64,000 nucleotides of DNA, taken from NCBI RefSeq assembly GCF_000026545.1, contig NC_011601.1, one strand, 5' to 3'. Shown here piece by piece: positions 1 through 37,864 of this stretch. The DNA comes from Escherichia coli O127:H6 str. E2348/69. GTDB lineage: Bacteria > Pseudomonadota > Gammaproteobacteria > Enterobacterales > Enterobacteriaceae. The notes beneath the pieces were generated by a model that saw only the letters and a list, made by a program, of their open reading frames with translations, made no database searches and was not told where the DNA came from. The stretch's first letter is position 1. Every line of letters begins with the position of its first letter. The translations under genes and the position numbers were made by a program.

Positions 1-2079
1 CGCTTTATCCAGCGAACGGAACAGATCTTTATAATCGATAATATAGCCATACTCTTTATCCTCACCGTCCAGCCGGTTCACCCGACAAATCGCCTGAAAC
101 AGCGTATGGTCGGTCATGGTTTTATCAATGTAGAGATAGGTGGCGGACGGCGCGTCAAAGCCAGTCAGCAGCTTATCCACCACGATAAGCAGGCGCATTT
201 GCCCCGGCTCTTCAATAAAACGCTGTTTCACTTCCCGCTCGAACTCGGTAATGCGTGCGGCGGCCTTCTCTTCACTTTGTTCAAAATAGTCAGCCAACAT
301 TTTACGATAGGTGGCGTGTTTAGAGAGTTTCTCCGTTAACCCTTCGCCTGTTTCTTCGCCTTTGATGCTGGCGGCATCGGGGCGATAGCTGGTCACAATC
401 GCTACTTTTCCTGCCAGCTCGGTCTGGCTGAACATCTCGTAAACCTTGCAGGCTTGATAGATACTGCTGCATACCAGCATGGCGTTGCCGCGCCCGTCCA
501 TCAGGCGTGGACGGGTATCCATATCCAACAAAATGTCGTTAACGATCTGCTCCAGCCGCGACTTGCTGGAGAGCAGCTTCTGCATTGATCCCCACTTTTG
601 CTTAAGCTGGGTCCTAGCTAAATTCGACAAGCCGCGAGTCTTGGCTTCAAACCAGTCATCGACCTTTTTCTCTGATGTCAGATACTGGTCAATATCGCGC
701 GCCTCATAGCGCAGATCCAGCACCACACCGTCGGCCACCGCTTCATCAAATTTATAGGTATGGATATAAGGGCCGAACACCTCAACCGACTTCTTCTTAT
801 CTTTCTTCATCAGCGGTGTGCCGGTAAAACCGATAAACAGGGCATCCGGCAGAATGGCAGTCATGGCGTTATGCAGCTTGCCGGATTGTGTGCGGTGGCA
901 CTCATCCACAAAAACAAACAGATCGCCTTTGGCGCAGAATGTTTTCGTCAGGGACTGCTGTAATTCGGTGATAAAGGCGTCGGTAGCCGCATTGTCTTCA
1001 GCTTCGCTGCGACGACCAAATTTATGCACCAGCGAGCAAATAAGCCACGGGTTAGGATGATTGAGCGTTGCGATAAGATCGTTGCCGCTGGAGGTGCGAT
1101 AAATATCTTCATTCACGCCCATAAACACGCTTTCGATCTGTTCATCCAGTTCGGTGCGGTCAGTCACAATCAACACGCGGGAGTTTGGCACATTTTCACG
1201 GATCCACTTCGCCAGCCAGACCATCGTCAGGCTTTTACCCGATCCCTGTGTGTGCCAGATAATACCGCCTTCACGACGGGCAATATGTTGTTTAGCCGCC
1301 TCGACGCCGAAGAACTGATTATGGCGGCAGAGTTTTTTCACCCCGACATCAAAGGCAATGTAATTATGGACGATATCCAACAGCCTGGATTTGCTACACA
1401 GACGACTTAAATGAAAGTCGAGTTTATGTGTATAGTCGCCAGGATTATCTTCTTTCCACTCCAGATAGTATTTTTCCGGGGTTTCGATGGTGCCGTAGCG
1501 CAGGCCCTGCGTATCGTTGCCTGCCATCACTAACTGCATAGTGGTGAAGAAATCGCGGATAAAGGTTTTCTTTTGATTATCGAGATTCTGCCGGATGCCT
1601 TCGCTGACGTGTACTGACGAACGCTTAAGTTCAATCACGCCCAGCGCAATGCCGTTAACGTACAGCACCAGATCCGGGCGCTTGCAGTACTCGCCTTTGA
1701 CCGTCACCTCATCAGCGATGGCGAAATCATTGGCTTGTGGGTTGGCCCAGTCAATCAGCCACACGGTTTGGTTCTGCTCGCCTGCGCCTTCTTTGTCTTT
1801 CACGCCGTAACGCAGCAGGCGATAGACCTCTTTATTGGCGTAATAGAGTTTTTTGCCTTCGCCCAGAGCGGCGGCGGAATCCAGTTGCCGCAACGCCCGG
1901 GTGATCAACGTATCATTAACGCCGCGCCGTTTTAGCCACGCGCTCAGTATATTAGTGTCGATGTTGCTGTTCCCGGTGTACCCGGTGCGGTGACTCAGAT
2001 GGCGGTAACCTAAATCTTCAACAAAAAACTGAATCAGACGCTGCTGTGTGGCGCGTTCGCGCTGGCCCACGGTACTCAA
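1..2079 (-). CDS. hsdR: Type I restriction enzyme R subunit (HsdR), partial; C-terminus runs off the left window edge
   Basis: Reverse-complement translation from ~2079 gives a continuous frame with helicase motifs (WHTQGSGKSLTMVWLA Walker A, FVFVDECHRTQ DEAH-like, GFTGTPL). AAGGAG lies 6 nt upstream of a TTG at 2079; alternative GTG at 2070. Not in ORF track because incomplete. Confidence 0.88.
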   Translation of the reverse strand, partial: MSTVGQRERATQQRLIQFFVEDLGYRHLSHRTGYTGNSNIDTNILSAWLKRRGVNDTLITRALRQLDSAAALGEGKKLYYANKEVYRLLRYGVKDKEGAGEQNQTVWLIDWANPQANDFAIADEVTVKGEYCKRPDLVLYVNGIALGVIELKRSSVHVSEGIRQNLDNQKKTFIRDFFTTMQLVMAGNDTQGLRYGTIETPEKYYLEWKEDNPGDYTHKLDFHLSRLCSKSRLLDIVHNYIAFDVGVKKLCRHNQFFGVEAAKQHIARREGGIIWHTQGSGKSLTMVWLAKWIRENVPNSRVLIVTDRTELDEQIESVFMGVNEDIYRTSSGNDLIATLNHPNPWLICSLVHKFGRRSEAEDNAATDAFITELQQSLTKTFCAKGDLFVFVDECHRTQSGKLHNAMTAILPDALFIGFTGTPLMKKDKKKSVEVFGPYIHTYKFDEAVADGVVLDLRYEARDIDQYLTSEKKVDDWFEAKTRGLSNLARTQLKQKWGSMQKLLSSKSRLEQIVNDILLDMDTRPRLMDGRGNAMLVCSSIYQACKVYEMFSQTELAGKVAIVTSYRPDAASIKGEETGEGLTEKLSKHATYRKMLADYFEQSEEKAAARITEFEREVKQRFIEEPGQMRLLIVVDKLLTGFDAPSATYLYIDKTMTDHTLFQAICRVNRLDGEDKEYGYIIDYKDLFRSLDKA

Positions 2080-2097
2080 AAGGCGCTCCTTAAACCC

Positions 2098-3177
2098 TCA
2101 GCAATGGAACTCCATTACGCGGTTAATGGCAAATTGCAGATTATTATTATCAAACAGCCTCAACTTACGGCTGGCCCAGCGTTCGCCCGCAGGCCACTGG
2201 TGCAGCCCTTCCTTAACGGAGTCCAGCGTTGGTTGACATTCGCCACGGCTCAGCAACCAGTCTACGGTTGCCAGCAACTCCAGACCAAACGGCGATTCAA
2301 AGCCGTCAATTAACTGGCTGACCTGCTCCAGCGCAGGTAGCCACTCTCTGGCTTCGTTGTTCAGATACGCATTAACGTGTTCTTTTTTCTGATCGTTAAA
2401 CCAGATCACATCCAGCGGTTGGCTGTCCGGGATGCGTTTCTCGGCTTTAAGATAGGTGCCGTCCAGCGCATTAAGCAGATGGTTCAGATTGGGCGCATAG
2501 GGGCCATAATAGTGAGCTTCAAACCGCAGTTTGAGGATATCGTCCTGTTGATGCTGCTCAATGGCGCGTTGTAACAGCCAGGCCAGTTTCTGGATTTCCA
2601 GTAGGCTGCACTCCATCCCCAATACCCAGTAGCGACGCACCAGTTCAGCGATGGCGGCTCTGGCGGGAGTGAGCTTTTTTACGCCAGTGCTTTTGGCAAC
2701 GTTCTGGTATTTTTCAGTCGGTTGGTAAATCAGGATATCAACGTCCTGAAGGTCGCCAAGGGCAGATTCAATCTGCGCCCGAACGTCCGGCCAGTTCAAA
2801 CCACCGTTGCCTGCGCCCAGTGGTGGAATGGCGATGGACTGCACGTTCTCTTCAATCAAAAAGCGGCGTAAGTCCTGCAAGCCATCTTCAATCCACTCCA
2901 TGCGGGAATCAGCGCGCCAGTGCTGTTTGGTCGGAAAATTAACAATCCAGCGCGGTCCCATCAGTTCCCCGGTTTCGGTAATGAACATTTTGCCGGTGAT
3001 CACCTGCTTTTGTTTGCAGGCGAGGGCATAGACTTTCATATTTTCGGGGAAGCGCTCTTTAAACATCAACGCGATGCCTTTCCCCATGACACCGACGGTA
3101 TTAACCGTATTCACCAGAGCTTCCACCGGTGCGTCCAGTAAATTGCCTTGTGTATATGTGATCATGAGAAGTACCAT
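2098..3177 (-). CDS. darG: DarG antitoxin (N-terminal macrodomain, ADP-ribosyl-DNA glycohydrolase)
   Basis: 359-aa ORF; macrodomain signature near N-terminus ([26 protein letters not shown]). Alternative ATG at 3165 gives a 4-nt ATGA overlap with the darT stop. Confidence 0.85.
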
Positions 3178-3818
3178 CCAGACCGTGTGTGAACGGACAT
3201 TGTTAGATTACGCTGAAACAGCCATTGTTCTAATTGTAACCTGACCTCTTCGCTGTAACAAATTATCCCATCCAGCAGAGAGATCGGGCAGTGTTGCCAG
3301 ATTAGCGCCTCTGCCTGATAGCGTTCAAATTTAGCCGGATCGTCTGGATCGCGGCGAAAGTCCCGTGCCTGCAAAATGGGCCAGTCGATCTGGTCCAGAC
3401 TATTCAGACTGGTGTAGTAGTTGGTCCAGTTATAGTAAGCATGGCTGTCGGTAAACACGAAGGGCACGTCGTGTGCTGCCACGTTCCGCAAGTTGCTGAC
3501 CAGAATAACGATCTCCTCATTGGGGCGTCGCTTAATGCCGCCGCGCCCGCTGTGGATGTTCATCAGCATTGGCGAGAAGGGGGTAAAATAAAACGGCACA
3601 TAGTCATGCAGTGTCCCGCCCGTTCCGACAGGTACCGGATGCCCGGCACGCTTGCCGATCAGCTCCGGGTTGCCGATATTGATCCAGTTTTCCGCCTGCA
3701 CCAGACTGTTGCCGCAGTGCAGCCCGTTATCCAGAATCCACGGGATATTGTCCCGATGGACGATACGCCAGATCAGGGCTTTTTGCGGGTTGAGGCTGGC
3801 GCTGTAGTCATAGGCCAT
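3162..3818 (-). CDS. darT: DarT toxin (DUF4433 ssDNA thymidine ADP-ribosyltransferase)
   Basis: 218-aa ORF immediately upstream of and overlapping the macrodomain gene; size and sequence as recalled for enteropathogenic E. coli DarT; ATG at 3816-3818. Confidence 0.82.
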
Positions 3819-3829
3819 AGGTTTCCCTT

Positions 3830-5191
3830 CTATATTAAGCGGGTTTTCCCGGTTAACAACTCCTGCATCATCCCCTGTTTAAGCTGACGGGTTTTGTCCA
3901 GACGCTGTTGCAGGGTCTGAATTTCCTTGTCCATATCGGAGAGGATGGTGGCGATGGCGGTTTGTTCTTCTTTTGGCGGAAATGCAAGATGTAATTTCCT
4001 GATAATAGTAAGATTCAACCCACCACGCCCCCCATCACCAGTAGATAAACTTCTCAGTTCCTCATAACGACTGTCGAGGTTATAGAACAGGAATTCTGTG
4101 GAATGATGTTTGCTGGGGAAAATCGCAGCAATAGACTGATTAGTACATAATTCAATGCGATTAATTGCTACAGTCCCTCGAGTCTTTCCTTGTCCTGCCA
4201 ATCCGACTAATACAGAATTTTTAGGCACATACTTTGTACTGGAGTTAACAAGCCCTTCGTCGGTTATATAATCGGCTACAGCATACACCTGTTTTAGGTG
4301 TAATTCGCCGGAACTCATCCAAGGATGAGTTCCTCCCCAATATGCTGAAATTTTAGTACTCGGAGTTCCACCAGCACAGCAGTCAGTAAATTGTCCAATG
4401 CTTGTGACTACCCAATCTTCAGGAATCGCCCCCAACTCGCTCTTTTTATATCCCTTAGCAGAGCCATCTTTGCGCAACGCAAACTGTGGCAAACGGGTTT
4501 TACCAGTCAGTAGTTGCTGCATTGTGGCAGTTTTGATGGACTGTTTTTTTGAGAGTAATTTTTCTAGGGATAGAATCAAGCTATCAACATTGGTTAATAC
4601 ATTAGCAATAGCCTTTTGCTCTACGATATTTTTCGGTATAGATATGCATAACTTCTCTAAAACTGAACGTTTAATCCCTTGGGCCGTTGAACCAGTCGCG
4701 CTTTCAGAAATATATGATTGAAAACGCTCTGATAATAAGATTTGGAGTATTAGTGATGGAGAAAAATTCTCTCTATCTATTTGTAAAAGAATTGTTCTCT
4801 GGCTAAGAATATATTTTTTGTTATCAGGAATAGATGCTGCATTCCCCAGAGGGGCTTCCATTGTGAAAGCTATGTCCCCTTTTTGGGGATGACCGGATGT
4901 CATCCAGCGCTTATATAGTTCTTCGGAACCAAAGTAACATTCAGTAGATAAATCTATATATCCTTTTTTAACATTAGCAGCAGAAAGGGCAACGATATCC
5001 CCATCCCCCCAATCCATTCCAAGTTTTTTGGGAGTTCTGCCGCGATAATCAATTATGTTGGTTGTCAGGTTTAATATCGTGGATACAACCCAATCCTCAG
5101 GAATCATCTCCATCTCAGTCAGCTTATACCCCGCAGGCACACCTTTCCCCACCGTACCCGACCGTTGCTCATTCAGCATTAAATCCACCAT
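3830..5191 (-). CDS. hsdS: Type I R-M specificity subunit (HsdS), two target-recognition domains
   Basis: ~453-aa ORF with the conserved LTGKTRL repeat after each TRD; ATG at 5189-5191 overlaps the hsdM stop by 1 nt (track start 5197 is an alternative GTG). Confidence 0.88.
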   Translation of the reverse strand: MVDLMLNEQRSGTVGKGVPAGYKLTEMEMIPEDWVVSTILNLTTNIIDYRGRTPKKLGMDWGDGDIVALSAANVKKGYIDLSTECYFGSEELYKRWMTSGHPQKGDIAFTMEAPLGNAASIPDNKKYILSQRTILLQIDRENFSPSLILQILLSERFQSYISESATGSTAQGIKRSVLEKLCISIPKNIVEQKAIANVLTNVDSLILSLEKLLSKKQSIKTATMQQLLTGKTRLPQFALRKDGSAKGYKKSELGAIPEDWVVTSIGQFTDCCAGGTPSTKISAYWGGTHPWMSSGELHLKQVYAVADYITDEGLVNSSTKYVPKNSVLVGLAGQGKTRGTVAINRIELCTNQSIAAIFPSKHHSTEFLFYNLDSRYEELRSLSTGDGGRGGLNLTIIRKLHLAFPPKEEQTAIATILSDMDKEIQTLQQRLDKTRQLKQGMMQELLTGKTRLI

Positions 5192-7629
5192 CACCACTCC
5201 AGCCCCATCGCCCGCAAATGCCCGGCCACTTTCTCGCTCAACGCCTCAACGGCGGCTGCAAGTGCTGGCAACGGTTCAGCATAACGCTCTTCCAGCTCCT
5301 TTACGCGCGACGCCAGTTGCTGGGTAATACGCTCTATCTCCGCTTTGATCCCTGCCTGCAATGTTGCCAGCCACTTATCCTGCACTACCAGCGTTTTAAT
5401 CGCTGCTTCATCCAGCGTGGGATAATGTTTAAATACCGCTCGATCCAACGCTTTCTGTGCGGCTTTTAGCGCTTTTTTCGCACTGGCCTCGGCCTTAATC
5501 AGCGCCAGACAGCGGTTCAGCACTGCCAGCTCATCCGGGTCGGCAGGGGTTTTCTTCAACTGTGCCAGACGGGCATTCACCAGCTTTTGCGTCACCTTAT
5601 CTTTATCGTTTTTCGCCTCAGCCAGCAGATCCTCTTCCCCTGCCTGCTCCTCGATGAATTCCACTAGCTGACGACTGGCTTCTTCACTACGCTCCTGCGC
5701 GCGGTTCAGCGCATCCAGCAGTTCCGGGAAACAGCGAATTTCCACCAGCGAACGGGGCAGCACATCGGCCTTGTAGCGCCGTTTGGTAAACTCGAAATCG
5801 TGCGTTTCTTTCCAGATGTTTTTGCCATCTTTGCCTTTCACCGGCTGAAGCTCGCGGATTTGCGCGGCGGCTTGCCAGCCATCCTGCATAATCACATACA
5901 CATCGTCCTGCATGACATCAGCCCAGTAATCCATCAGGATCTGGTACACGCTGTATTTGTTCAGCAACTCACTGTTGGCGTACTGCGCCAATAGCATTTC
6001 GCTGATATCGTGGATTAGCGCTTTGGGTTTATCTCCTTTGCGGATCTCTTCCAGACCTGCCTCTTTTACCCACGACTTAAACGGTAGCAGGCTGCGGGTG
6101 GCAAAATCCTTAAACTCCTGATGAGCCAGAATGGTCGGTTTCACCTGCTGAGCGTCCACTTGCGCCCGGCAGTAACCGGGGTGGTCGTCAGCAAACAGCA
6201 CATTACGCAGGGCAGGGAATACCCGCCAATAATCCTTCAAAGCATCTACATCGCGCACTGGAATACCGCCTTGTAAGTGCGCGGTCAGATCGTGCAAATC
6301 TTCCGGCTCTCCACTCTCGATATAACGAGGAATATTCAGGTTGTAATCATTCCCGGCGATCTCGCTGGAGGGCACCATCCGGCTGTAGCCTGGCACCGTT
6401 CGCTGATGGTTGAACACGTCCACAATACGGTGAATATCTTGGCTACGCAGGCGGTTCTTGTTGCCATCTTTGATAAAGCCCCGACTGGCGTCGATCATAA
6501 AAATGCCTTTGCGGCTGTGGGCGTGCTCTTTATCAATCACAATGATGCACGCCGGGATGCCGGTGCCGTAAAACAGGTTGGCTGGCAAACCAATAACGCC
6601 TTTGATATAGCCCTGCTTGATTAGGTTTTCACGGATATTCGCTTCGGCGTTACCGCGAAACAGTACGCCGTGGGGCAGGATTACCGCGCCTTTGCCGGTA
6701 CTTTTCAGGCTTTTAATGATATGCAACAAAAAAGCATAATCGCCGTTTTTTTCCGGCGGAATACCCCAGCCGAAGCGTTCAAACGGATCTTTTTTTGGCG
6801 TCAGCCCGTTGGTCCAGTTTTTATTGGAAAAAGGCGGGTTCGCCACGGCAAAATCGAAGGCTTTCAGTTTGCCGTTCGCCTCTTTCCACTGCGGATCGCT
6901 CAGCGTATTGCCCTGCCAGATTTTCGCGGTGGCATTGTTATGCAGAATCATGTTCATCCGCGCCAGCGCACTGGTAGCGTTATCCATCTCTTGGCCGAAA
7001 ATCGACAGTCCGCGCCGGGCTTCATCATTCACTTTCAACAGCAGCGAACCAGAGCCACAGGTTGGGTCATAAACCGTTGCATCTCGCGGCGTATCGGGAG
7101 TAATACCAATCACCTTCGCCAGAATACGTGACACCTCCGCCGGAGTGTAAAACTGTCCTTTACTCTTGCCGGATTCGGTTGCGAAGTGACGCATCAGATA
7201 TTCATAGGCATCGCCCAGCAGATCGTCGCCTTCGACCCGGTTGCTGGAGAGATCTAACCCTTCAAAGATACCGACAAGCTTGCTCAGGCGGTCAATCATT
7301 TCCTTGCCTTTGCCGAGTTTATCTTCGTCGTTAAAGTCGGCTTCGTCGATGACGCCCTTCAGGCCGTTCTCTTCCGCCAGCTTGTGGATGATTTTGTTGA
7401 TTTTATCGCCGATCTCTTTGTCATTTTTCAGCGCAACCATATCGTCAAAGCTGGCTCCTTTGGGTATCACGATCATCCCGTAAGGATCGCCTTTATACTT
7501 ATCGGAAACGTACTTCATAAACAGCAGGGTCAGTACATAGTCTTTGTACTGGCTGGCGTCCATCCCGCCACGCAGTTCGTCGCAGCTTGCCCACAGGGAA
7601 GAATAGAGTTCGGTTTTTTTGATAGCCAT
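5191..7629 (-). CDS. hsdM: Type I R-M N6-adenine DNA methyltransferase (HsdM), unusually long (812 aa) with a C-terminal coiled-coil extension
   Basis: HsdM-type N-terminus (ELYSSLWASCDELRGGMDASQYKDYVLTLLFMKYVSDKY), SAM-binding FYTP and catalytic NPPF motifs; ~280 aa alanine/lysine/glutamate-rich helical tail. Confidence 0.88.
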   Translation of the reverse strand: MAIKKTELYSSLWASCDELRGGMDASQYKDYVLTLLFMKYVSDKYKGDPYGMIVIPKGASFDDMVALKNDKEIGDKINKIIHKLAEENGLKGVIDEADFNDEDKLGKGKEMIDRLSKLVGIFEGLDLSSNRVEGDDLLGDAYEYLMRHFATESGKSKGQFYTPAEVSRILAKVIGITPDTPRDATVYDPTCGSGSLLLKVNDEARRGLSIFGQEMDNATSALARMNMILHNNATAKIWQGNTLSDPQWKEANGKLKAFDFAVANPPFSNKNWTNGLTPKKDPFERFGWGIPPEKNGDYAFLLHIIKSLKSTGKGAVILPHGVLFRGNAEANIRENLIKQGYIKGVIGLPANLFYGTGIPACIIVIDKEHAHSRKGIFMIDASRGFIKDGNKNRLRSQDIHRIVDVFNHQRTVPGYSRMVPSSEIAGNDYNLNIPRYIESGEPEDLHDLTAHLQGGIPVRDVDALKDYWRVFPALRNVLFADDHPGYCRAQVDAQQVKPTILAHQEFKDFATRSLLPFKSWVKEAGLEEIRKGDKPKALIHDISEMLLAQYANSELLNKYSVYQILMDYWADVMQDDVYVIMQDGWQAAAQIRELQPVKGKDGKNIWKETHDFEFTKRRYKADVLPRSLVEIRCFPELLDALNRAQERSEEASRQLVEFIEEQAGEEDLLAEAKNDKDKVTQKLVNARLAQLKKTPADPDELAVLNRCLALIKAEASAKKALKAAQKALDRAVFKHYPTLDEAAIKTLVVQDKWLATLQAGIKAEIERITQQLASRVKELEERYAEPLPALAAAVEALSEKVAGHLRAMGLEW

Positions 7630-7668
7630 TAAATATCTCGTTTTGCGCGATAATGTGCCGTAAGTCGG

Positions 7669-7914
7669 TTACAGCAGATCGGTATTCAGACCGGCGGCCT
7701 TTAACCGACGGGTTAAGTTACGCATTTTGCTGAATTCGGTACCGAGGCTCTGGCTCAGACCAGTGCCTTCGCAAAAGGCTTTTGCCGTAATGTGTTCCAG
7801 TTTGTCGGCATATTTAATCATTTGCAGGTGCAGCTCGACGGTGTACTGGTTACGAGGCGCACTGGAAAGTGCCTGCCGGATATGGCGATAAATCTCGTCT
7901 TCATCCATATTCAT
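7669..7914 (-). CDS. Small hypothetical protein (~81 aa) directly upstream of hsdM; possible regulator
   Basis: ORF co-oriented with hsdM and ending 40 bp before its ATG; likely start at internal ATG 7912-7914 (MNMDEDEIYRH...). The track N-terminal extension begins at a TTG and runs through the tandem repeat. Confidence 0.4.
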   Translation of the reverse strand: MNMDEDEIYRHIRQALSSAPRNQYTVELHLQMIKYADKLEHITAKAFCEGTGLSQSLGTEFSKMRNLTRRLKAAGLNTDLL

Positions 7915-7940
7915 GGTAACCACTGGTATAATGGATAAGT

Positions 7941-7967
7941 TAGCTAAATTAGCTAAATTAGCTAAAT
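7941..7967. repeat. Three tandem copies of a 9-bp unit containing the 8-bp palindrome TTAGCTAA
   Basis: TTAGCTAAA TTAGCTAAA TTAGCTAAA read directly; lies ~27 bp upstream of the small ORF start on the minus strand. Confidence 0.85.
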
Positions 7968-9059
7968 GTGGTATCAGGTTCAAGAACTACAGTGGGAGTC
8001 GGATTTGACTGCGCGATTTATGCACGTAAATGCCTTGTGGCGGATTAATGGCTGCAGTATCTTCTCCTTCCGCGCCTGCAAAATCAGGCGTCAGAATTAG
8101 CCTCCTGAAAACCGTTACAGGAGACTTCTCTATAGACTACAATCCTTGTCCCTGACTGCGATTTACTCGATCTATTGTTCGTTCCCTTATAATGCCACTA
8201 TAGATTTTACCGCCTTGGTCGACAACTGCGCCCGCTTTGCCGAATCCCTGATAGAAACCTAGGATCTTGCGCTGTAGCTTACCCTCTGCGGGCGATCTTG
8301 TACTGCTGCAACTCACGCAACACGACCTCATCCCGCCGCATCTTAACGAAAGCCTGCTCAGTGATACTCTCCCCACCATGCCAGAGCAGGTTATTTCTGA
8401 ACCTGATTCTTGTGCGAATATTGCCTCGTGCGGGCTGTGCATCATCGCCGCTCTTTGATAAGAGGCGTCAAAGGTAAGGGGCGTAGCGTTATTAGTTTGG
8501 GCTATACACTTGCGCTACAACTCTTCAAATAGCTATATATCAACAATATTTAGCCATAAACCGTCTACTTCCGTCTCAATTATACTCAAATTAAGGCATG
8601 CGGCATCTTTGTGACACATTTGTTTTTTTTATACAGGTTAGAGTTGACCTGCTCTCCGTTGATTAACTCACATTGTTGTTAACCACGTCTACTTTTAGCA
8701 CGACACTGATGCGTTAACTGAGCGAATGGTCTGCTTTGAGCGAGGAACGGACGTTCGCTTTCGGGTAACCTAACCCATATGCCAGAGGATCTCTAAGAGA
8801 TAATGGGTCGTTTAAGCGTGGCACTTACAGTATCAACGCCTCCGCACCCGACAACGTCTTGACTGCTGCAGATTCACTGAATAGACTGGTGACCTTTATC
8901 TTCATTTTGCGTGCAGCAAAATAAAGTTTTTGACTTACGAAAATCGTCGATTCGACTTAATTATACTAAGGGTTTTATGCTGACTTTTCATTGTGGGATA
9001 CACTAAATTAGTGAGATGAGAATTTATCTAACTGTCATTAACATAAGTAGGATTTAAAA

Positions 9060-9428
9060 ATGGCTAATAGCGAAATTGTTCCGTTTTCTGAAATTGTTAC
9101 AAGCAAAATAGACCTCAATCAAGCTGTAGCTCAAGGTCAAGAGATGACTGATACTCTTAAAAAAATGGGTATCAAAGAAGCGACATTTGATAGTGGAGCT
9201 TACTATAAACATGATCACGAATCGCAGACCACTACTCTTGCAGCTGATGGAATCTTGATGCGGCAGAGCCTCCACATTACAACAGTTATTTTCCGTAACG
9301 AAGGAAGTACTGAACAACAAGCTTTAGAGGAGCTTAATGCTGGTTCTCTGACACAAAAAACCTTAGGTGCATTCTCTGGAGTCTCTCAACAGAGAGCGTC
9401 TGAGCTACTCCAAATTGAAAAAGAATAA
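9060..9428 (+). CDS. Hypothetical protein (122 aa) with a C-terminal helix-turn-helix-like segment
   Basis: ORF in a low-GC block; AGGA ribosome-binding site upstream; C-terminal TQKTLGAFSGVSQQRASELLQIE resembles XRE-type HTH. Confidence 0.5.
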   Translation: MANSEIVPFSEIVTSKIDLNQAVAQGQEMTDTLKKMGIKEATFDSGAYYKHDHESQTTTLAADGILMRQSLHITTVIFRNEGSTEQQALEELNAGSLTQKTLGAFSGVSQQRASELLQIEKE

Positions 9429-9497
9429 TTATAAATAGGTTAGTAACGGCAGTTTTCTGCCGTTACTAAGAGTATTTACTCAAAATTAGGGAGTATT

Positions 9498-9884
9498 ATG
9501 GGATTCAATGACCAGCCCAAAAACCTGAAAAAATCCATTAACGATAAATATAACAGAAGGGTAAAGTCACTTTCTCGGCATCTCGAGGATTTTATTTATC
9601 ATGCAGAAATGAAACTGGACGAATCTATTTCTGGAAGGATTTATCGCAGAAGCGAGATTGAGTCAATTGTTGAGAAAGTAAAAGAATTGATGGCTATCCT
9701 TCCGGCTTCAGATGAACCTCCTTCAATTAATTTTGATATTCTTGAAATCATTGAGAATGCAACAGAAGAAACTCAGCGCATTTTATCAGAAGGACAAAAA
9801 TTCTTCGACAACCTCTCTCCTGAAGAATTGGCAGAAATGATATCAACATTCCAACAAAATAAAAAAGATAGTGAATCTGAGTGA
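9498..9884 (+). CDS. Hypothetical protein (128 aa), acidic and predicted helical
   Basis: ORF 70 bp downstream of and co-oriented with the previous ORF; GGGAG ribosome-binding site; no recognisable motif. Confidence 0.45.
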   Translation: MGFNDQPKNLKKSINDKYNRRVKSLSRHLEDFIYHAEMKLDESISGRIYRRSEIESIVEKVKELMAILPASDEPPSINFDILEIIENATEETQRILSEGQKFFDNLSPEELAEMISTFQQNKKDSESE

Positions 9885-19479: not shown

Positions 19480-21867
19480 ATGATGCACGAAAAGAACATC
19501 GCCCTGCTTTGTGATGAAGCCGACCGGCTTTTGCAACTGAATATCAATCTGCTCCGGCAAATGGTTGATGAGCCGGATGTGTTATCTGACAGTAAGAACG
19601 AAAACGGGCTGCTTTTTGATAAACGGAAAGCGCTGAAAAGAATTGAGGAGCTGGAGGGCGAACAAATCAAAACCGCCCGCAGGGAGATGGTGCTGGCTGT
19701 GGTCGGCACGATGAAGGCGGGCAAATCAACCACCATCAACGCCATTGTGGGGCAGGAAATTCTGCCCAACCGTAACCGCCCCATGACCTCGGTACCGACA
19801 TTGATCCGCCACGTTCCCGGAAAAACGGAACCGGTCCTCCATCTGGAACATATTCAGCCCGTCCGCAATTTATTAATCACACTGCAGGAAAAACTCGCCA
19901 CCCCGGCAGGGCAGCAAGTCGCACAGTCCCTGCAGCAAACCGGGGATACCCGCGAACTACTGGATATTCTGGCGGATGATGTCTGGCTTAAAAATGAATA
20001 CCACGGGGAAGACGAAATCTTTACCGGACTGGCATCGTTAAATGACCTGGTTCGTCTTGCTGCGGCAATGGGGACTGAATTTCCTTTTGACGAATACGCA
20101 GAAGTGCAGAAACTACCGGTGATCGACGTGGCGTTCAGCCACCTGGTGGGAATGGATGCATGTCAGGGAACACTCACACTGCTGGATACCCCCGGCCCTA
20201 ATGAAGCCGGACAACCACAGATGGAAATGATGATGCGGGATCAACTACAGAAAGCCTCTGCGGTGCTGGCGGTGATGGATTACACCCAGATGAACTCGAA
20301 AGCCGATGAGGAGGTTCGTAAAGAGCTTAATGCCATTGCTGACGTCTCAGCCGGTCGTCTGTTTGTGCTGGTCAATAAATTCGATGAAAAAGATCGCAAT
20401 GGTGATGGTGCGGATGCCGTACGCCAGAAGGTGCCAGCAATGCTGAACAGCGATGTGCTGCCCGCCTCCCGCGTTTATCCCGGCTCATCACGTCAGGCGT
20501 ACCTTGCTAACCGTGCGCTTCATGAGTTACGAAAAAACGGTGCGCTTCCGGTTGATGAAGCCTGGGTCGATGATTTTATCAGGGAAGCTTTCGGACCTAT
20601 GGTGGAAGAGGACGACTGGAAAGACAGCACTAAGGTAAATAAAAAGGCAGAAAAACTCTGGAATATATCTCTGATCGATCAACTGATAACGGAAGTCATA
20701 CAGAGCTCCCATTCCAGAGCGGCGGCACTGGCGGTTGACTCTGCCGCCGCAAAACTGATGCAGAATGCAGAAAATATCAGCGAATATCTGTCATTACGTC
20801 ATCAGGGGCTGCAGCAAAGCATTCAGTCACTACAGGCGCATATTACCAGCCTGCTGGCGGATATCCAGGAGATTGAGGAATGTCAGAATCAGGTGACCGG
20901 TGATGTCAGAATGGCCATGGAGGACATCAATACCAAAACCGGGGAATTACTGACGAAGGTCTGTGCCTCACTGGAGGAGGAGCTGAACGACTATTTCAGA
21001 AGCGGTAAACGCAAAGAACAGCAAATGCTGGAGGAAGAAAATTCAGCGCAGCCCCGGGAGAGAAACGCATTCGCTTTCTTTCACGATATTTTCGGAACCG
21101 GAAATCAGCATGACAGGATGCGGGACTTTGATCCGGACAGCCCCGAAATAAAATTCAGTGATCGCAGGGCAGCCCTTGAACTGATGACGCAAATCGAATC
21201 GACCGTGACCAGCCTGCACCGTGAGGCTGAAGCACAGTTCCGGCCTGAGCTGGAGAAAATCGTCAGCGGGATTGAAACAGGTTTTCGTGGCACGGCCCTG
21301 TACGCCACAGAAAACATTGCCGGTCGCATCAATGCCCGCCTGGAGGATGAGGGCTTTACCGTAAAAATCAGTTTTCCGGCAGTCAGCCAGTTACAGACCC
21401 GGCTCGCGGTAAAAATAAATCTGAGTGCGCTTATGGAGGAAAGAACGGAGACCGTCACCCGTCGCCGTCGGCAGAGTGGCGTATGGGGAACCGTTTGTCG
21501 ATGGTTTGGCACCAGTGACCTGGGCTGGGAAAACTATGACGAGGATGTGAGTCGCAGCGTGATCAATATCAACAAGGTCAGAGAGGAAGTTATGTCACTG
21601 ACCCGGGCATATTTCGGGGAGCTGCAGGCATCCATTGAGCAGGATATTAACCAGCCCGTCCGCCAGGAAATCGATGCCTTTTTCTGCGCATTCAGGGAGA
21701 AAGTTGAACAACTGCGTAACACGCTGATTCAGAGCTCTGAAGATCATAAACGCGATCAGCAGGCGCAGGAACGGCTTACCGGGCGACTTCAGGCATTAAA
21801 TGAAAGGGTTCCTGAGCTCATTACTGACAGTAAGGCGCTGAGGGAAGAGCTGGAGACAATGCTGTGA
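19480..21867 (+). CDS. Dynamin-like GTPase, CrfC/YjdA-like (795 aa)
   Basis: G1 GTMKAGKST (nt 19705-19731), G3 DTPGPNE, G4 NKFD; long helical C-terminal region; resembles recalled E. coli CrfC (YjdA) N-terminus. Confidence 0.85.
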   Translation: MMHEKNIALLCDEADRLLQLNINLLRQMVDEPDVLSDSKNENGLLFDKRKALKRIEELEGEQIKTARREMVLAVVGTMKAGKSTTINAIVGQEILPNRNRPMTSVPTLIRHVPGKTEPVLHLEHIQPVRNLLITLQEKLATPAGQQVAQSLQQTGDTRELLDILADDVWLKNEYHGEDEIFTGLASLNDLVRLAAAMGTEFPFDEYAEVQKLPVIDVAFSHLVGMDACQGTLTLLDTPGPNEAGQPQMEMMMRDQLQKASAVLAVMDYTQMNSKADEEVRKELNAIADVSAGRLFVLVNKFDEKDRNGDGADAVRQKVPAMLNSDVLPASRVYPGSSRQAYLANRALHELRKNGALPVDEAWVDDFIREAFGPMVEEDDWKDSTKVNKKAEKLWNISLIDQLITEVIQSSHSRAAALAVDSAAAKLMQNAENISEYLSLRHQGLQQSIQSLQAHITSLLADIQEIEECQNQVTGDVRMAMEDINTKTGELLTKVCASLEEELNDYFRSGKRKEQQMLEEENSAQPRERNAFAFFHDIFGTGNQHDRMRDFDPDSPEIKFSDRRAALELMTQIESTVTSLHREAEAQFRPELEKIVSGIETGFRGTALYATENIAGRINARLEDEGFTVKISFPAVSQLQTRLAVKINLSALMEERTETVTRRRRQSGVWGTVCRWFGTSDLGWENYDEDVSRSVININKVREEVMSLTRAYFGELQASIEQDINQPVRQEIDAFFCAFREKVEQLRNTLIQSSEDHKRDQQAQERLTGRLQALNERVPELITDSKALREELETML

Positions 21868-22769
21868 CTTCACCATTTATTCAACAAATTGCTGATAACC
21901 GGGTATGTCAGGTACTCACCTGTCTTCCTGAAAAATTTGTGGTTGATTTCGCAAACGGAATCGATGTTGCACAGGAGCATATCCGCACGGCCGGAGAGCG
22001 CACGTTCTTCCGGCGTTTAAAAGAGGGGCTGACCGGCGAAGGCGCTGCACGGCAGAATGCCATCAATGCGTCGCTTGCACAGGGCGTTGAGGCGTCCCTG
22101 CGCTGGCTGACGGAGATGACAACGTCACTTGCCACCACAAACTACGCGATTACCCGGGTAAACGACAGGGTCAGTTCACTGGTCAGTGATACAGCCAGGC
22201 TGGCGCATTATTCCGCAGATACGCGGGAGCAGTTACTCACCCTGGCCGATCAGGTTCACCATAAACTGAATCATCTTGAAGAAAAACTCCACCGTGTTGA
22301 CCAGGTTCAGCGGGCGCAGTTACATCTTGAGCAGATATTCTCATGGTGGAGCGCCGGGCGATATGCGTCATTTTCCCCTGCCGGACGTTGTTATGTGGCA
22401 CTTGAAGAGCTTCGCTGGGGCGCGTTTGGTGATGTGATACGTCAGGGCGAAACAGGCCAGGTTAACCAGCTACTGGATATTCTCAGACATAAAGCATTAA
22501 CGCAGATGGCACAGGAGAGTGGCGGTAGTGCAACCGTGCGTCTGAACACTCTGGACTGGCTTGGTGGTCAGGGCCGGGAGCAGGCAGATAACGAGTGGCA
22601 TGACGCGATTAACTGGCTGGGAGACTGGTGCAGTGAAGAGCAGCATCCGGTGATCTGGTCAACCACGCAGGCTGCAGAACACTTACCGGTTCGCATGCCT
22701 CGCCTCTGCTCTGCAGAACGCCTCTCTGAAAGTATGGTCGATGAAATATTTCAGAAGGGGGCTGCATGA
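21864..22769 (+). CDS. Hypothetical protein (301 aa), YjcZ-like partner of the dynamin GTPase
   Basis: Start overlaps the dynamin stop by 4 nt; no nucleotide-binding motif; size and position match YjcZ next to yjdA in K-12 (sequence similarity to YjcZ not verified). Confidence 0.6.
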   Translation: MTSPFIQQIADNRVCQVLTCLPEKFVVDFANGIDVAQEHIRTAGERTFFRRLKEGLTGEGAARQNAINASLAQGVEASLRWLTEMTTSLATTNYAITRVNDRVSSLVSDTARLAHYSADTREQLLTLADQVHHKLNHLEEKLHRVDQVQRAQLHLEQIFSWWSAGRYASFSPAGRCYVALEELRWGAFGDVIRQGETGQVNQLLDILRHKALTQMAQESGGSATVRLNTLDWLGGQGREQADNEWHDAINWLGDWCSEEQHPVIWSTTQAAEHLPVRMPRLCSAERLSESMVDEIFQKGAA

Positions 22770-23836
22770 GTACAGAAATGAAAACGGGGCTGGTGCTGTC
22801 CGGTGGCGGGGCGGTGGGCGCTTATCAGGCGGGAGTGGTTAAGGCACTGGCAGAGTGTGGTACACAGATCAGCATGGTTTCAGGGACCAGCATTGGCGCA
22901 TTCAATGGTGCCATTATCGCGGCCTCTCCCGATCTGTCAGAAGCTGCCGTACGCCTGGAGGCGCTCTGGGAGCATCTGGGGAATAATCAGGTGCTGTCGG
23001 TAAACAGATTGGTTTACTTTTCATTGCTGAAAAAATTGTTCCAGGCAATGAACCTCTGCCAGATCCCCGGACGTGCAGGAGCACTGCTTACGACGCTTCT
23101 TCGCCATATATCGACAATCAACGGGTTTGACAATCTGATGGCTCAGCCGTTGTTGTCAGATGAGCCCCTGACAGCGCTGATGGATCATTATCTTGATACT
23201 GATGCTCTGGCAGACGGGCTACCGCTGTATGTGTCGCTGTACCCCACAGAAGGGGGCATGCAGGATATTATTGACTGCATTCGTGCTGAACTGGGTGTCG
23301 GAACCACGAAAAACGCCGTTTTTCAGCATATCCAGAGCCTGCCCCGCGGACAGCAGAAAGAGGCTCTGCTTGCGTCAGCCGCGCTGCCCCTGCTGTTCCG
23401 TCCCCGTGAGGTTCAGGGGACAATGTTCGGTGATGGTGGTATGGGAGGATGGCGAAATATGCAGGGAAATACCCCTGTGACGCCTCTGGTCGATACCGGA
23501 TGCAATATGGTGATTGTGACGCATCTGAGTGACGGTTTTTTATGGGATCGCAAGGCTTTTCCGGACACCACAATCCTTGAGATCCGTCCCCGGAAAAGGC
23601 TGAAATATGCAGGTGATGGTGGCAACAGCGGCGGTCTGCTCAGTTTTACATCGGCACATACCGACGCCTGGCGTCAGCAGGGCTATGAAGACACGATGCT
23701 GGCGATGGAGCATATCCGGAAACCGCTGGCAGCACGTCAGGCACTGACCCGGTCAGAGGCGGTATTGCAGAAAAGCCTGGATATAACGGAAGAGGCAGAT
23801 TTGGCACTGAGAAACGCGATGGCCCGGATTAAATAA
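22766..23836 (+). CDS. Patatin-like phospholipase (356 aa)
   Basis: Oxyanion-hole GGGxxG (LSGGGAVGAYQAG), nucleophile elbow GxSxG (GTSIG, nt 22883-22897) and catalytic-Asp DGG (FGDGG) motifs; start overlaps the previous stop by 4 nt. Confidence 0.85.
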   Translation: MSTEMKTGLVLSGGGAVGAYQAGVVKALAECGTQISMVSGTSIGAFNGAIIAASPDLSEAAVRLEALWEHLGNNQVLSVNRLVYFSLLKKLFQAMNLCQIPGRAGALLTTLLRHISTINGFDNLMAQPLLSDEPLTALMDHYLDTDALADGLPLYVSLYPTEGGMQDIIDCIRAELGVGTTKNAVFQHIQSLPRGQQKEALLASAALPLLFRPREVQGTMFGDGGMGGWRNMQGNTPVTPLVDTGCNMVIVTHLSDGFLWDRKAFPDTTILEIRPRKRLKYAGDGGNSGGLLSFTSAHTDAWRQQGYEDTMLAMEHIRKPLAARQALTRSEAVLQKSLDITEEADLALRNAMARIK

Positions 23837-25084: not shown

Positions 25085-25570
25085 ATGACAACCGTTTCGC
25101 ATAATTCCACCACACCTTCTGTTTCCGTAACCACTGCATCAGGGAATAACCCACCTCAGCTGGTTGCCACTCCCGTCCCTGATGAACAGCGCATCAGCTT
25201 CTGGCCGCAGCATTTTGGCCTCATTCCACAGTGGGTGACCCTGGAGCCCCGTGTCTTCGGCTGGATGGACCGTCTTTGCGAAGACTACTGCGGTGGTATC
25301 TGGAATCTGTACACCCTGAACAACGGCGGGGCATTTATGGCACCCGAACCGGATGACGATGATGACGAAACATGGGTACTGTTCAATGCCATGAACGGCA
25401 ACCGCGCTGAAATGAGCCCGGAAGCCGCCGGTATTGCTGCCTGTCTGATGACGTACAGTCATCATGCCTGTCGTACGGAGTGTTATGCCATGACGGTCCA
25501 CTATTACCGGCTGCGGGATTACGCCCTGCAGCATCCGGAATGCAGCGCCATTATGCGCATCATTGACTGA
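25085..25570 (+). CDS. Antirestriction protein (ArdB/KlcA family; YfjX/YeeS-neighbour type)
   Basis: 161-aa ORF with acidic DDDDDE stretch, resembling K-12 YfjX/YafX-type antirestriction proteins. Confidence 0.7.
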   Translation: MTTVSHNSTTPSVSVTTASGNNPPQLVATPVPDEQRISFWPQHFGLIPQWVTLEPRVFGWMDRLCEDYCGGIWNLYTLNNGGAFMAPEPDDDDDETWVLFNAMNGNRAEMSPEAAGIAACLMTYSHHACRTECYAMTVHYYRLRDYALQHPECSAIMRIID

Positions 25571-26508: not shown

Positions 26509-26883
26509 GTGTCAGACAAACTCTCCGGGATAACTCATCCCGATGACAATCACGACCGCCCCTGGTGGGGGCTTCCCTGCACAGTGAGGCCCTGTTTTGG
26601 CGCTCGTCTGGTGCAAGAGGGTAACCGCCTGCATTACCTTGCTGACCGCGCCGGTATCAGAGGCCGCTTCAGCGACGCAGATGCATACCATCTGGACCAG
26701 GCCTTTCCGCTGCTGATGAAACAACTGGAACTCATGCTCACCAGCGGTGAACTGAATCCCCGATATCAGCATACCGTCACGCTGTATGCAAAAGGGCTGA
26801 CCTGCGAAGCCGACACCCTCGGCTCCTGTGGTTACGTTTATCTGGCTGTTTATCCGACACCAGCACCCGCAACCACCTCATAA
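26509..26883 (+). CDS. cbeA: CbeA/YeeU-family type IV antitoxin
   Basis: 124-aa ORF near-identical to recalled YeeU (MSD...[15 protein letters not shown]...). Confidence 0.85.
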
Positions 26884-26929
26884 CCCCGAAGCTCTCACCT
26901 TTAGCACTACCAGTTACAGAGAACTTAAG

Positions 26930-27304
26930 ATGAAAACATTATCCGACACACATGTACGGGAGGTATCTCGCTGCCCGTCTCCCGTCACCATCTGGCAGAC
27001 ACTGCTCATCCGACTGCTGGACCAGCATTATGGCCTCACACTGAATGACACACCGTTTGCCGATGAACGTGTGATTGAGCAGCATATTGAGGCAGGCATT
27101 TCACTGTGTGATGCAGTTAATTTTCTCGTGGAAAAATACGCGCTGGTGCGTACCGACCAGCCGGGATTCAGCACCTGTCCCCGCTCTCAGTTAATAAACA
27201 GTATTGATATCCTCCGGGCTCGCCGGGCGACCGGCCTGATGACCCGCGACAATTACAGAACGGTAAATAACATTACCCTGGGTAAGTATCCGGAGGCGAA
27301 ATGA
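26930..27304 (+). CDS. cbtA: CbtA/YeeV-family toxin (cytoskeleton-targeting)
   Basis: 124 aa from [26 protein letters not shown]...; the track ORF is N-terminally extended. Confidence 0.85.
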
Positions 27305-29077: not shown

Positions 29078-29165
29078 TGGCGGTGAGGGGGGGATTCGAA
29101 CCCCCGATACGTTGCCGTATACACACTTTCCAGGCGTGCTCCTTCAGCCACTCGGACACCTCACC
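29078..29165 (-). tRNA. serX: tRNA-Ser (anticodon GGA)
   Basis: Reverse complement reads GGTGAGGTGTCCGAGTGGCTGAAGGAGCACGCCTGGAAAGTGTGTATACGGCAACGTATCGGGGGTTCGAATCCCCCCCTCACCGCCA; next to ghrA as in K-12. Confidence 0.9.
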
Positions 29166-37330: not shown

Positions 37331-37864
37331 ATGAAAACGCGTATTCATGTTGTGCAGGGTGATATTACCAAACTGGCCGTTGATGTGATTGTGAATGCGG
37401 CTAATCCGTCATTAATGGGAGGCGGCGGCGTCGATGGGGCCATTCATCGCGCAGCGGGTCCGGCGCTGCTGGATGCCTGTTTAAAAGTCAGGCAGCAGCA
37501 GGGCGATTGCCCTACGGGGCATGCCGTTATTACGCTTGCAGGCGATCTTCCCGCTAAAGCCGTAGTGCACACCGTCGGGCCAGTCTGGCGTGGTGGTGAA
37601 CAAAACGAAGACCAGCTTTTGCAGGATGCCTATCTCAATAGCCTACGACTGGTGGCGGCAAACAGCTATACGTCAGTGGCTTTTCCTGCAATCAGTACTG
37701 GGGTTTATGGTTATCCTCGTGCGGCAGCGGCTGAAATCGCAGTAAAAACCGTTTCAGAATTTATTACCCGTCACGCTTTACCCGAACAGGTATACTTTGT
37801 CTGTTATGATGAAGAAAACGCCCACCTCTACGAAAGACTCCTTACCCAACAAGGAGATGAATGA
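37331..37864 (+). CDS. ymdB: O-acetyl-ADP-ribose deacetylase (macrodomain) YmdB
   Basis: 177 aa; macrodomain motifs ([23 protein letters not shown]). Confidence 0.93.

Follow-up and report, generated by a model that had tools for sequence, protein, structure and literature searches.

A DarTG2 module as probable cargo in the type I restriction-modification operon of enteropathogenic Escherichia coli E2348/69

Introduction

Why should a toxin and its antitoxin lie between two subunit genes of a restriction enzyme? The question is raised by positions 1 to 8000 of a 64,000-nucleotide stretch of the Escherichia coli O127:H6 str. E2348/69 chromosome (NC_011601.1; the whole stretch is here called the window), where the original prediction, made from the sequence alone, placed a DarTG toxin-antitoxin module inside a type I restriction-modification (R-M) operon, with hsdS on one side and hsdR on the other. 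The locus was read correctly but is already known: earlier papers describe the two proteins and what they do chemically, how they are embedded in the type I operon, the regulator, and the protection against phages. It stands as a correct reading of a defence locus from raw sequence, and the literature gains nothing from the gene identities. We consider it highly probable (about 0.9) that the pair is the DarTG2 system of enteropathogenic E. coli (EPEC) E2348/69, carried as cargo in the type I operon of the island abbreviated RRDM (for RptR-RMS-DarTG-M48), that restriction and DarTG are independent layers of defence, and that the position they share is a general slot.

Positions 1 to 8000 of the window are 100% identical to the E. 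coli O127:H6 E2348/69 chromosome, in which RefSeq annotates darT and darG. The link previously drawn from DarTG and type I R-M loci to enteropathogenic E. coli is therefore literal, since this is the E2348/69 locus itself. Its two proteins were characterised by Lawaree et al. (2020, Cell Rep; PMC7003065). EPEC DarT transfers ADP-ribose from NAD+ onto thymine in single-stranded DNA (ssDNA) at TTT/TCT and stalls replication; it is inactive on double-stranded DNA (dsDNA), and the E170A substitution abolishes its activity. Wild-type darT could not be cloned, and even the attenuated G49D variant is lethal to cells and brings replication to a halt. EPEC DarG removes ADP-ribose via its macrodomain, which a K54A mutant cannot do, while its C-terminal domain, which bound DarT in a two-hybrid assay, sequesters the toxin and rescues cells alone (PMC7003065). 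The checks proposed with the original prediction, namely the catalytic glutamate, the toxicity of darT and the rescue by darG, had thus been carried out experimentally on these very proteins (PMC7003065). EPEC DarT2 has also been reused as a genome-editing ‘append editor’ (PMC13368585), and the residues mutated in that work are all present in the DarT of the window.

The whole locus was described as a seven-gene “RRDM” island by Zhang et al. (Nucleic Acids Res 2025; PMC12255303), with DarTG2 embedded between hsdS and hsdR; the insertion of DarTG into type I operons had already been noted by Jankevicius et al. (2016). Zhang et al. reported promoter activity and RptR binding for the upstream sequence, where RptR represses at three TAGCTA boxes, and found hsdM messenger RNA (mRNA) to increase more than 15-fold when phage infects. 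When cloned, the island confers protection from phages Trib, Baz, TB34 and lambda-vir, and lowers T7 plating 1000-fold (PMC12255303).

Results

Gene order and boundaries

The cluster comprises seven co-oriented genes, rptR-hsdM-hsdS-darT-darG-hsdR-M48. Its features within the window, in the direction of transcription, are the following:

7941..7983, minus strand: island promoter/operator, with the -35 box TTGAAC (7983..7978) and three TAGCTA boxes
7669..7908, minus strand: rptR, the first island gene, encoding a 79-aa transcriptional repressor (open reading frame (ORF) and translation; RefSeq WP_000343040.1)
5191..7629, minus strand: hsdM, type I methyltransferase subunit, 812 aa (RefSeq WP_000985463.1)
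3830..5191, minus strand: hsdS, specificity subunit, 453 aa from the ATG at 5191 (RefSeq coordinates)
3162..3818, minus strand: darT, DarT2-class ssDNA thymidine ADP-ribosyltransferase toxin, 218 aa, ATG start (RefSeq WP_000312835.1)
2098..3165, minus strand: darG, DNA ADP-ribosyl glycohydrolase antitoxin, 355 aa (RefSeq WP_000634203.1)
1..2079, minus strand: hsdR, type I restriction/translocase subunit, TTG start (RefSeq WP_000108733.1)

The window edge cuts hsdR, leaving 693 of its 1031 codons visible, and the M48 peptidase gene (WP_001122107.1) lies downstream of hsdR, outside the window, according to the RefSeq annotation of the source genome. The five-gene unit first proposed was right in its shared minus-strand orientation; with rptR upstream and M48 downstream, the co-oriented cluster has seven genes.

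From rptR to M48 the successive junctions measure 39, -1, 11, -4, 18 and -1 bp. Thus 39 bp separate rptR from hsdM, and the hsdM stop and hsdS start overlap by 1 nt. The hsdS stop codon (TAG, 3830-3832) is followed by an 11-bp gap, AAGGGAAACCT, before the darT ATG, and the darG ATG overlaps the darT TGA as ATGA (4 nt). Between the darG stop and the hsdR TTG at 2079 there are 18 bp, with an AAGGAG Shine-Dalgarno sequence preceding the TTG, and hsdR and M48 overlap by 1 nt in the source genome. The ORF lengths and the 11-bp gap given originally match the ORFs and the junction sequence. A gap of about 20 bp had been estimated on the hsdR side, close to the exact 18 bp from TTG 2079, while the left edge of the module had been set at 2068, which falls 11 nt inside hsdR.

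Several start codons needed a choice between candidates. The longest hsdS ORF begins earlier than the annotated gene, at GTG 5197. For hsdR, TTG 2079 aligns with the ATG of the HsdR proteins of two sister operons that carry a different, GmrSD-like cargo (described below), and GTG 2070 was rejected as a start on the strength of this alignment. The use of TTG (2077-2079), where the sisters have ATG, may tune HsdR dosage downstream of darTG. A 359-aa DarG (2098..3177) was rejected in favour of the 355-aa RefSeq start coupled through ATGA; the 355-aa protein aligns from residue 1 with the macrodomains of Thermus aquaticus and Mycobacterium tuberculosis DarG. An older gene model for DarG began at Met27 (window position 3087), cutting off the first conserved macrodomain strand.

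Identity of DarT and DarG

The 218-aa protein matches the NCBIfam equivalog model for DarT over its entire length (NF048013, 262.6 bits with the cut-off at 150, all 204 profile positions covered), as it does Pfam PF14487 (2.8e-53, profile positions 1-201 of 201) and the PADLOC DarT model (1.4e-74). Among solved structures it comes nearest to Thermus DarT (7omv, 4.8e-26) and to that of M. tuberculosis (7yk3_A). In the alignment with 7omv, the Thermus DarT2 residues R51, Y71, H119 and E160 correspond to R57, Y77, H126 and E170, so that all four are conserved. Their roles have been described: E160 is the catalytic glutamate of the ADP-ribosyltransferase, Y71 is the tyrosine of the ARTD H-Y-E motif, R51 is the arginine for proton abstraction in DarT2, and H119 coordinates thymine, its place being taken by asparagine in DarT1 (PMC11543638). 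E170 aligns with the position of the E160A substitution in structure 7omv, and G49, R57, M84, M86, R92, R166, E170 and R193 are all found at the positions of published mutagenesis; of these, R57, M84, M86, R92, R166 and R193 bind DNA. The original DarT call is borne out by NF048013 and PF14487, and its catalytic glutamate is E170 in the alignment.

Judged by its residues, the protein is a member of the DarT2 class, with a thymine-coordinating histidine and a macrodomain partner. Because of this histidine and the macrodomain antitoxin, we assign it to DarT2 and not to the guanine-specific, NADAR-partnered DarT1. Membership of DarTG1, as that class is defined in PMC11543638, was rejected: the antitoxin is a macrodomain protein, with no NADAR match.

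DarG scores 451.2 bits against NF048014 (cut-off 250) and carries an N-terminal Pfam Macro domain (4.7e-21), in agreement with the earlier call of a DarG with an N-terminal macrodomain. Residues 1-152 match the macrodomain structures 5m31 of T. aquaticus (4.2e-55) and 5m3i of M. tuberculosis (1.5e-53), and C-terminal residues 183-351 match the M. tuberculosis DarG chain 7yk3_B, the part that binds DarT (5.4e-13). The catalytic lysine, also K80 in T. aquaticus DarG, is K80, within the segment NFPTKQHWR; the published K54, numbered from the old Met27 start, is K80 of the 355-aa annotation. Since the model matches of DarT and DarG have E-values from 1e-53 to 1e-135, a chance match is not an issue.

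Type I restriction-modification genes

HsdM, HsdS and HsdR are all present and co-oriented, with the full hsdR in the source genome. HsdM scores 1425 bits against the PADLOC MTase_I model and 280.8 bits against TIGR00497 (cut-off 242.75), and its relatives in the PDB include EcoR124II HsdM (1.3e-64). HsdS matches the PADLOC Specificity_I model at 5.3e-153. HsdR scores 1204 bits against PADLOC REase_I and 540 bits against TIGR00348 (cut-off 284.55), and is distantly related to the HsdR of EcoR124I (7.9e-35). The PADLOC and TIGR models therefore uphold the reading of a type I R-M operon in which the module separates hsdS from hsdR.

Promoter, operators and transcription unit

Upstream of rptR lie three direct TAGCTA palindromes on the minus strand (7964..7959, 7955..7950 and 7946..7941), overlapping the AGCTAATTT -10 boxes. 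The 79-aa RptR gene, these three upstream operators and the M48 gene after hsdR identify the locus as an RRDM island. All seven genes would be read from the RptR-controlled promoter as a single transcript. This single transcription unit is suggested by the tight junctions, together with counts of promoter-like and terminator-like sites no higher than expected. A consensus scan for internal promoters found 11 sites, against 9.0 ± 3.4 in shuffled sequence, and a scan for terminator-like sites found 9, against 9.7 ± 3.5 in the shuffles. Internal promoters or terminators that split the operon were rejected, as the site counts are at the level of shuffled sequence.

The sole candidate for separate transcription of darG and hsdR is a sigma-70-like TTGTTA-17-TACAAT site at 3261..3233 on the minus strand, inside the 3' end of darT and upstream of darG. 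It has 9 of 12 consensus matches, which is at chance level and not evidence for a promoter.

Distribution in E. coli and the hsdS-hsdR slot

We surveyed 5,426 complete E. coli genomes, counting the operon as present where at least 80% of the 8-kb stretch was found. The darTG pair occurs in 248 of them, and the same 248 genomes carry at least 80% of the 8-kb operon. In 243 of 249 records darTG keeps 99% identity or more, whereas across the 248 operons the covered share of the 8-kb stretch drops to 84-95%, with identity mostly 95-99%. The lower coverage fits variable target-recognition regions in hsdS.

Two sister operons, in E. coli A37 and E. coli CT29, encode proteins that share 72% (RptR), 74% (HsdM), 79% (HsdR) and 66% (M48) amino acid identity with those of EPEC. 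In both, darTG is replaced by two DUF262 genes with GmrSD-like profiles (the PADLOC HEC-06, Orf5 and SspE families), a pair that resembles TgvAB:

L003:3539-6974, E. coli A37: GmrSD-like (TgvAB-like) DUF262 pair in the hsdS-hsdR slot
L002:11072-14567, E. coli CT29: GmrSD-like (TgvAB-like) DUF262 pair in the hsdS-hsdR slot

The EPEC and sister operons lose their homology in the final HsdS residues (...QGMMQELLTGKTRL) and regain it at the very N-terminus of HsdR (M/L-S-N/T-V-G-Q-R-E-R). As read from these alignments, the breakpoints support the RRDM paper's remark about a ‘recombination hotspot’ (PMC12255303). The alternation of DarTG and a GmrSD-like pair between exact breakpoints offers a clean natural system in which to study cargo exchange.

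One natural variant of the operon, in E. coli STEC2017-197, has a frameshifted darT pseudogene (L009:4662-5051) but intact darG, hsdMSR, rptR and M48; immediately upstream there is a gene for an anti-phage dGTPase.

DarTG2 outside the operon

At five sampled plasmid loci, from Zymomonas, Moraxella, Sulfitobacter, Burkholderia and Bacillus, no annotated type I hsd gene was found among the listed neighbours of DarTG2, a result that is indicative, as the gene table of PLSDB has gaps. When cloned, DarTG2 operons provide defence by themselves, and DarTG2 systems of Pseudomonas aeruginosa modify phage DNA (PMC13309987). Members of both DarTG1 and DarTG2 are described as providing robust phage defence in E. 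coli, with raised ADP-ribosylation of phage DNA (introductions of PMC12255303 and PMC11543638).

The DarTG2 of Moraxella osloensis plasmid p1 (L005:1274-10381), whose DarT is 60.8% identical, is flanked by a large DNA methyltransferase and RelB/YafQ on one side and by a DEAD/DEAH helicase and a GIY-YIG nuclease on the other. It may be embedded within a different multi-gene defence system.

DarG-like proteins were found in 311 phage records, most of them matching the macrodomain part only. They include phages of Salmonella, Serratia, Klebsiella and Erwinia (H171-H183), and in Thermus phage phiMa (H166) the DarG-like gene is close to full length (91% coverage, 45.6% identity). These phage macrodomains fit the recently described phage anti-DarTG2 factor AdfM.

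Neighbouring features of the window

The RRDM genes belong to a genomic island integrated beside a serine transfer RNA gene (tRNA-Ser, ~29078-29165). At 19480-23836 on the plus strand, this island carries genes whose products are a 795-aa dynamin-family protein, a 301-aa RdcB-family protein and a 356-aa patatin-like phospholipase. The three-gene set has weak PADLOC matches (LeoBC, 1.6e-05; phospholipase effector, 6e-06) and may be an uncharacterised defence module. Further genes of the tRNA-Ser island specify a 161-aa antirestriction protein and the toxin and antitoxin of a CbtA/YeeU pair, at 25085-25570 and 26509-27304, so that anti-restriction and the type I operon share one island.

A second macrodomain gene, ymdB (37331-37864, plus strand), lies ~34 kb from darG; it encodes an O-acetyl-ADP-ribose deacetylase and belongs to the core genome. 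A stretch of low GC content (0.35-0.41) at positions 8500-10900, with the island promoter on one side and an IS3 element (IS, insertion sequence) on the other, holds three hypothetical ORFs:

9060-9428, plus strand: hypothetical ORF within the low-GC stretch
9498-9884, plus strand: hypothetical ORF within the low-GC stretch
10465-10881, minus strand: hypothetical ORF within the low-GC stretch

A PADLOC scan of RptR, M48 and these three ORFs returned no matches.

Discussion

DarTG as cargo in a general slot

An autonomous DarTG2 module in a general cargo slot is favoured because an unrelated cargo is swapped into the same slot, because DarTG2 occurs at sampled plasmid loci with no annotated type I hsd genes among the listed neighbours, and because it defends when standing alone. 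As the slots of the sister operons hold the unrelated GmrSD-like pair, the position of darTG implies no specific interaction with the restriction enzyme. The hsdS-hsdR junction would instead be filled via recombination in the conserved gene ends, with no particular partnership between DarTG and restriction. In a cell under attack, restriction would cut unmethylated incoming DNA, and DarTG would back it up by abortive infection, modifying phage DNA during its replication when DarG falls behind DarT. The two systems would be independent, complementary layers.

Several points weigh against this account. The protection conferred by RRDM was tested for the whole island only, and the transcript measurement covered hsdM mRNA only (PMC12255303); a weak promoter-like site lies within the 3' end of darT (3261..3233, 9 of 12 matches). 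In addition, every one of the 248 darTG-bearing genomes also carries at least 80% of the 8-kb operon, so there may be a functional dependence. This last co-occurrence is explained equally well by one acquisition followed by vertical and horizontal spread, given the near-identity of darTG across the records.

Alternative explanations

Among the other roles that might be proposed, it is improbable that DarTG chiefly prevents loss of the island by post-segregational killing, with phage defence secondary. Jankevicius et al. (2016) raised stabilisation as a possibility, and the island is flanked by IS elements within the tRNA-Ser-associated genomic island. Against this, both the DarTG1 and DarTG2 families provide phage defence and modify phage DNA (PMC12255303, PMC11543638, PMC13309987), and the strain with a frameshifted darT keeps the operon, which indicates that the toxin is not needed for retention. 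Addiction and defence are, however, not mutually exclusive roles.

The PrrC anticodon nuclease sits in the hsdS-hsdR slot of prr loci, where it is held latent by the restriction complex; DarT instead has an antitoxin of its own. This analogous position invites a guard model, by which DarTG would remain inactive as long as the type I complex is intact, firing when an anti-restriction protein of the Ocr type disables that complex; the original prediction put forward such a trigger as a hedged inference. It might draw further on the 1000-fold reduction of T7 plating by the island, although T7 encodes the anti-restriction protein Ocr (PMC12255303), and on the presence of at least 80% of the 8-kb operon in all 248 darTG-bearing genomes. 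Nevertheless, the dedicated inhibitor DarG suffices without any Hsd protein (PMC7003065), DarTG2 lacks annotated hsd neighbours on the sampled plasmids and defends when cloned alone, and the same slot in the sister operons holds an unrelated GmrSD-like pair. We judge a guard function improbable as well. Just as doubtful is a broader functional coupling of DarTG to the type I enzyme, whether through release or up-regulation when HsdMSR is disabled (e.g., by T7 Ocr) or through translation of darT-darG gating the TTG-started HsdR. If such a coupling were true, the hsdS-hsdR slot would be a place reserved for a ‘backup’, as in the case of PrrC.

A mutual influence of DarT ADP-ribosylation and HsdM/HsdS adenine methylation on the same DNA, posed as a question by Jankevicius et al. 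(2016) and brought to mind by the adjacency of the genes, is very improbable, because DarT targets ssDNA thymine at TTT/TCT and not dsDNA (PMC7003065), and because the hsdS recognition regions vary over the 248 operons while darTG stays nearly constant, so that DarT is not co-evolving with the recognition sequence. The comparison of slots in the EPEC and sister operons bears on the wider question of any cross-talk between restriction and DarTG.

Comparison with known systems

The general-slot reading of DarTG2 can be set against several described systems. Closest is the RRDM island of PMC12255303, which is the same DNA, with the same seven protein accessions and the same -35 and TAGCTA boxes; the only difference is that the window ends inside hsdR, leaving the 3' part of hsdR and M48 outside. 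The EPEC DarTG of Lawaree et al. (2020; PMC7003065) likewise consists of the same proteins and differs in the numbering of DarG (K54 as against K80). Thermus DarT2 (7omv, Thermus sp. 2.9), T. aquaticus DarG (5m31) and the M. tuberculosis DarT-DarG pair (7yk3) share the folds, catalytic residues and gene order. EPEC DarT is nevertheless only ~30-34% identical to the Thermus and M. tuberculosis proteins, prefers TTT/TCT to TNTC, and has a different genomic context in the loci compared.

Assignment of the locus to the PrrC-type guards of type Ic enzymes was rejected: the cargo is DarT/DarG, with no PrrC homologue, and HsdR is only a distant relative of that of EcoR124I. A published parallel for a second defence module inside a type I hsd operon is TgvAB in VPI-2 of Vibrio cholerae, and the DUF262 pair of the sister operons is TgvAB-like and occupies the identical slot to darTG. 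What distinguishes these systems is the nature of the cargo, which is a type IV nuclease pair in TgvAB, an anticodon nuclease in the case of PrrC, and an ADP-ribosylating toxin with its antitoxin in E2348/69.

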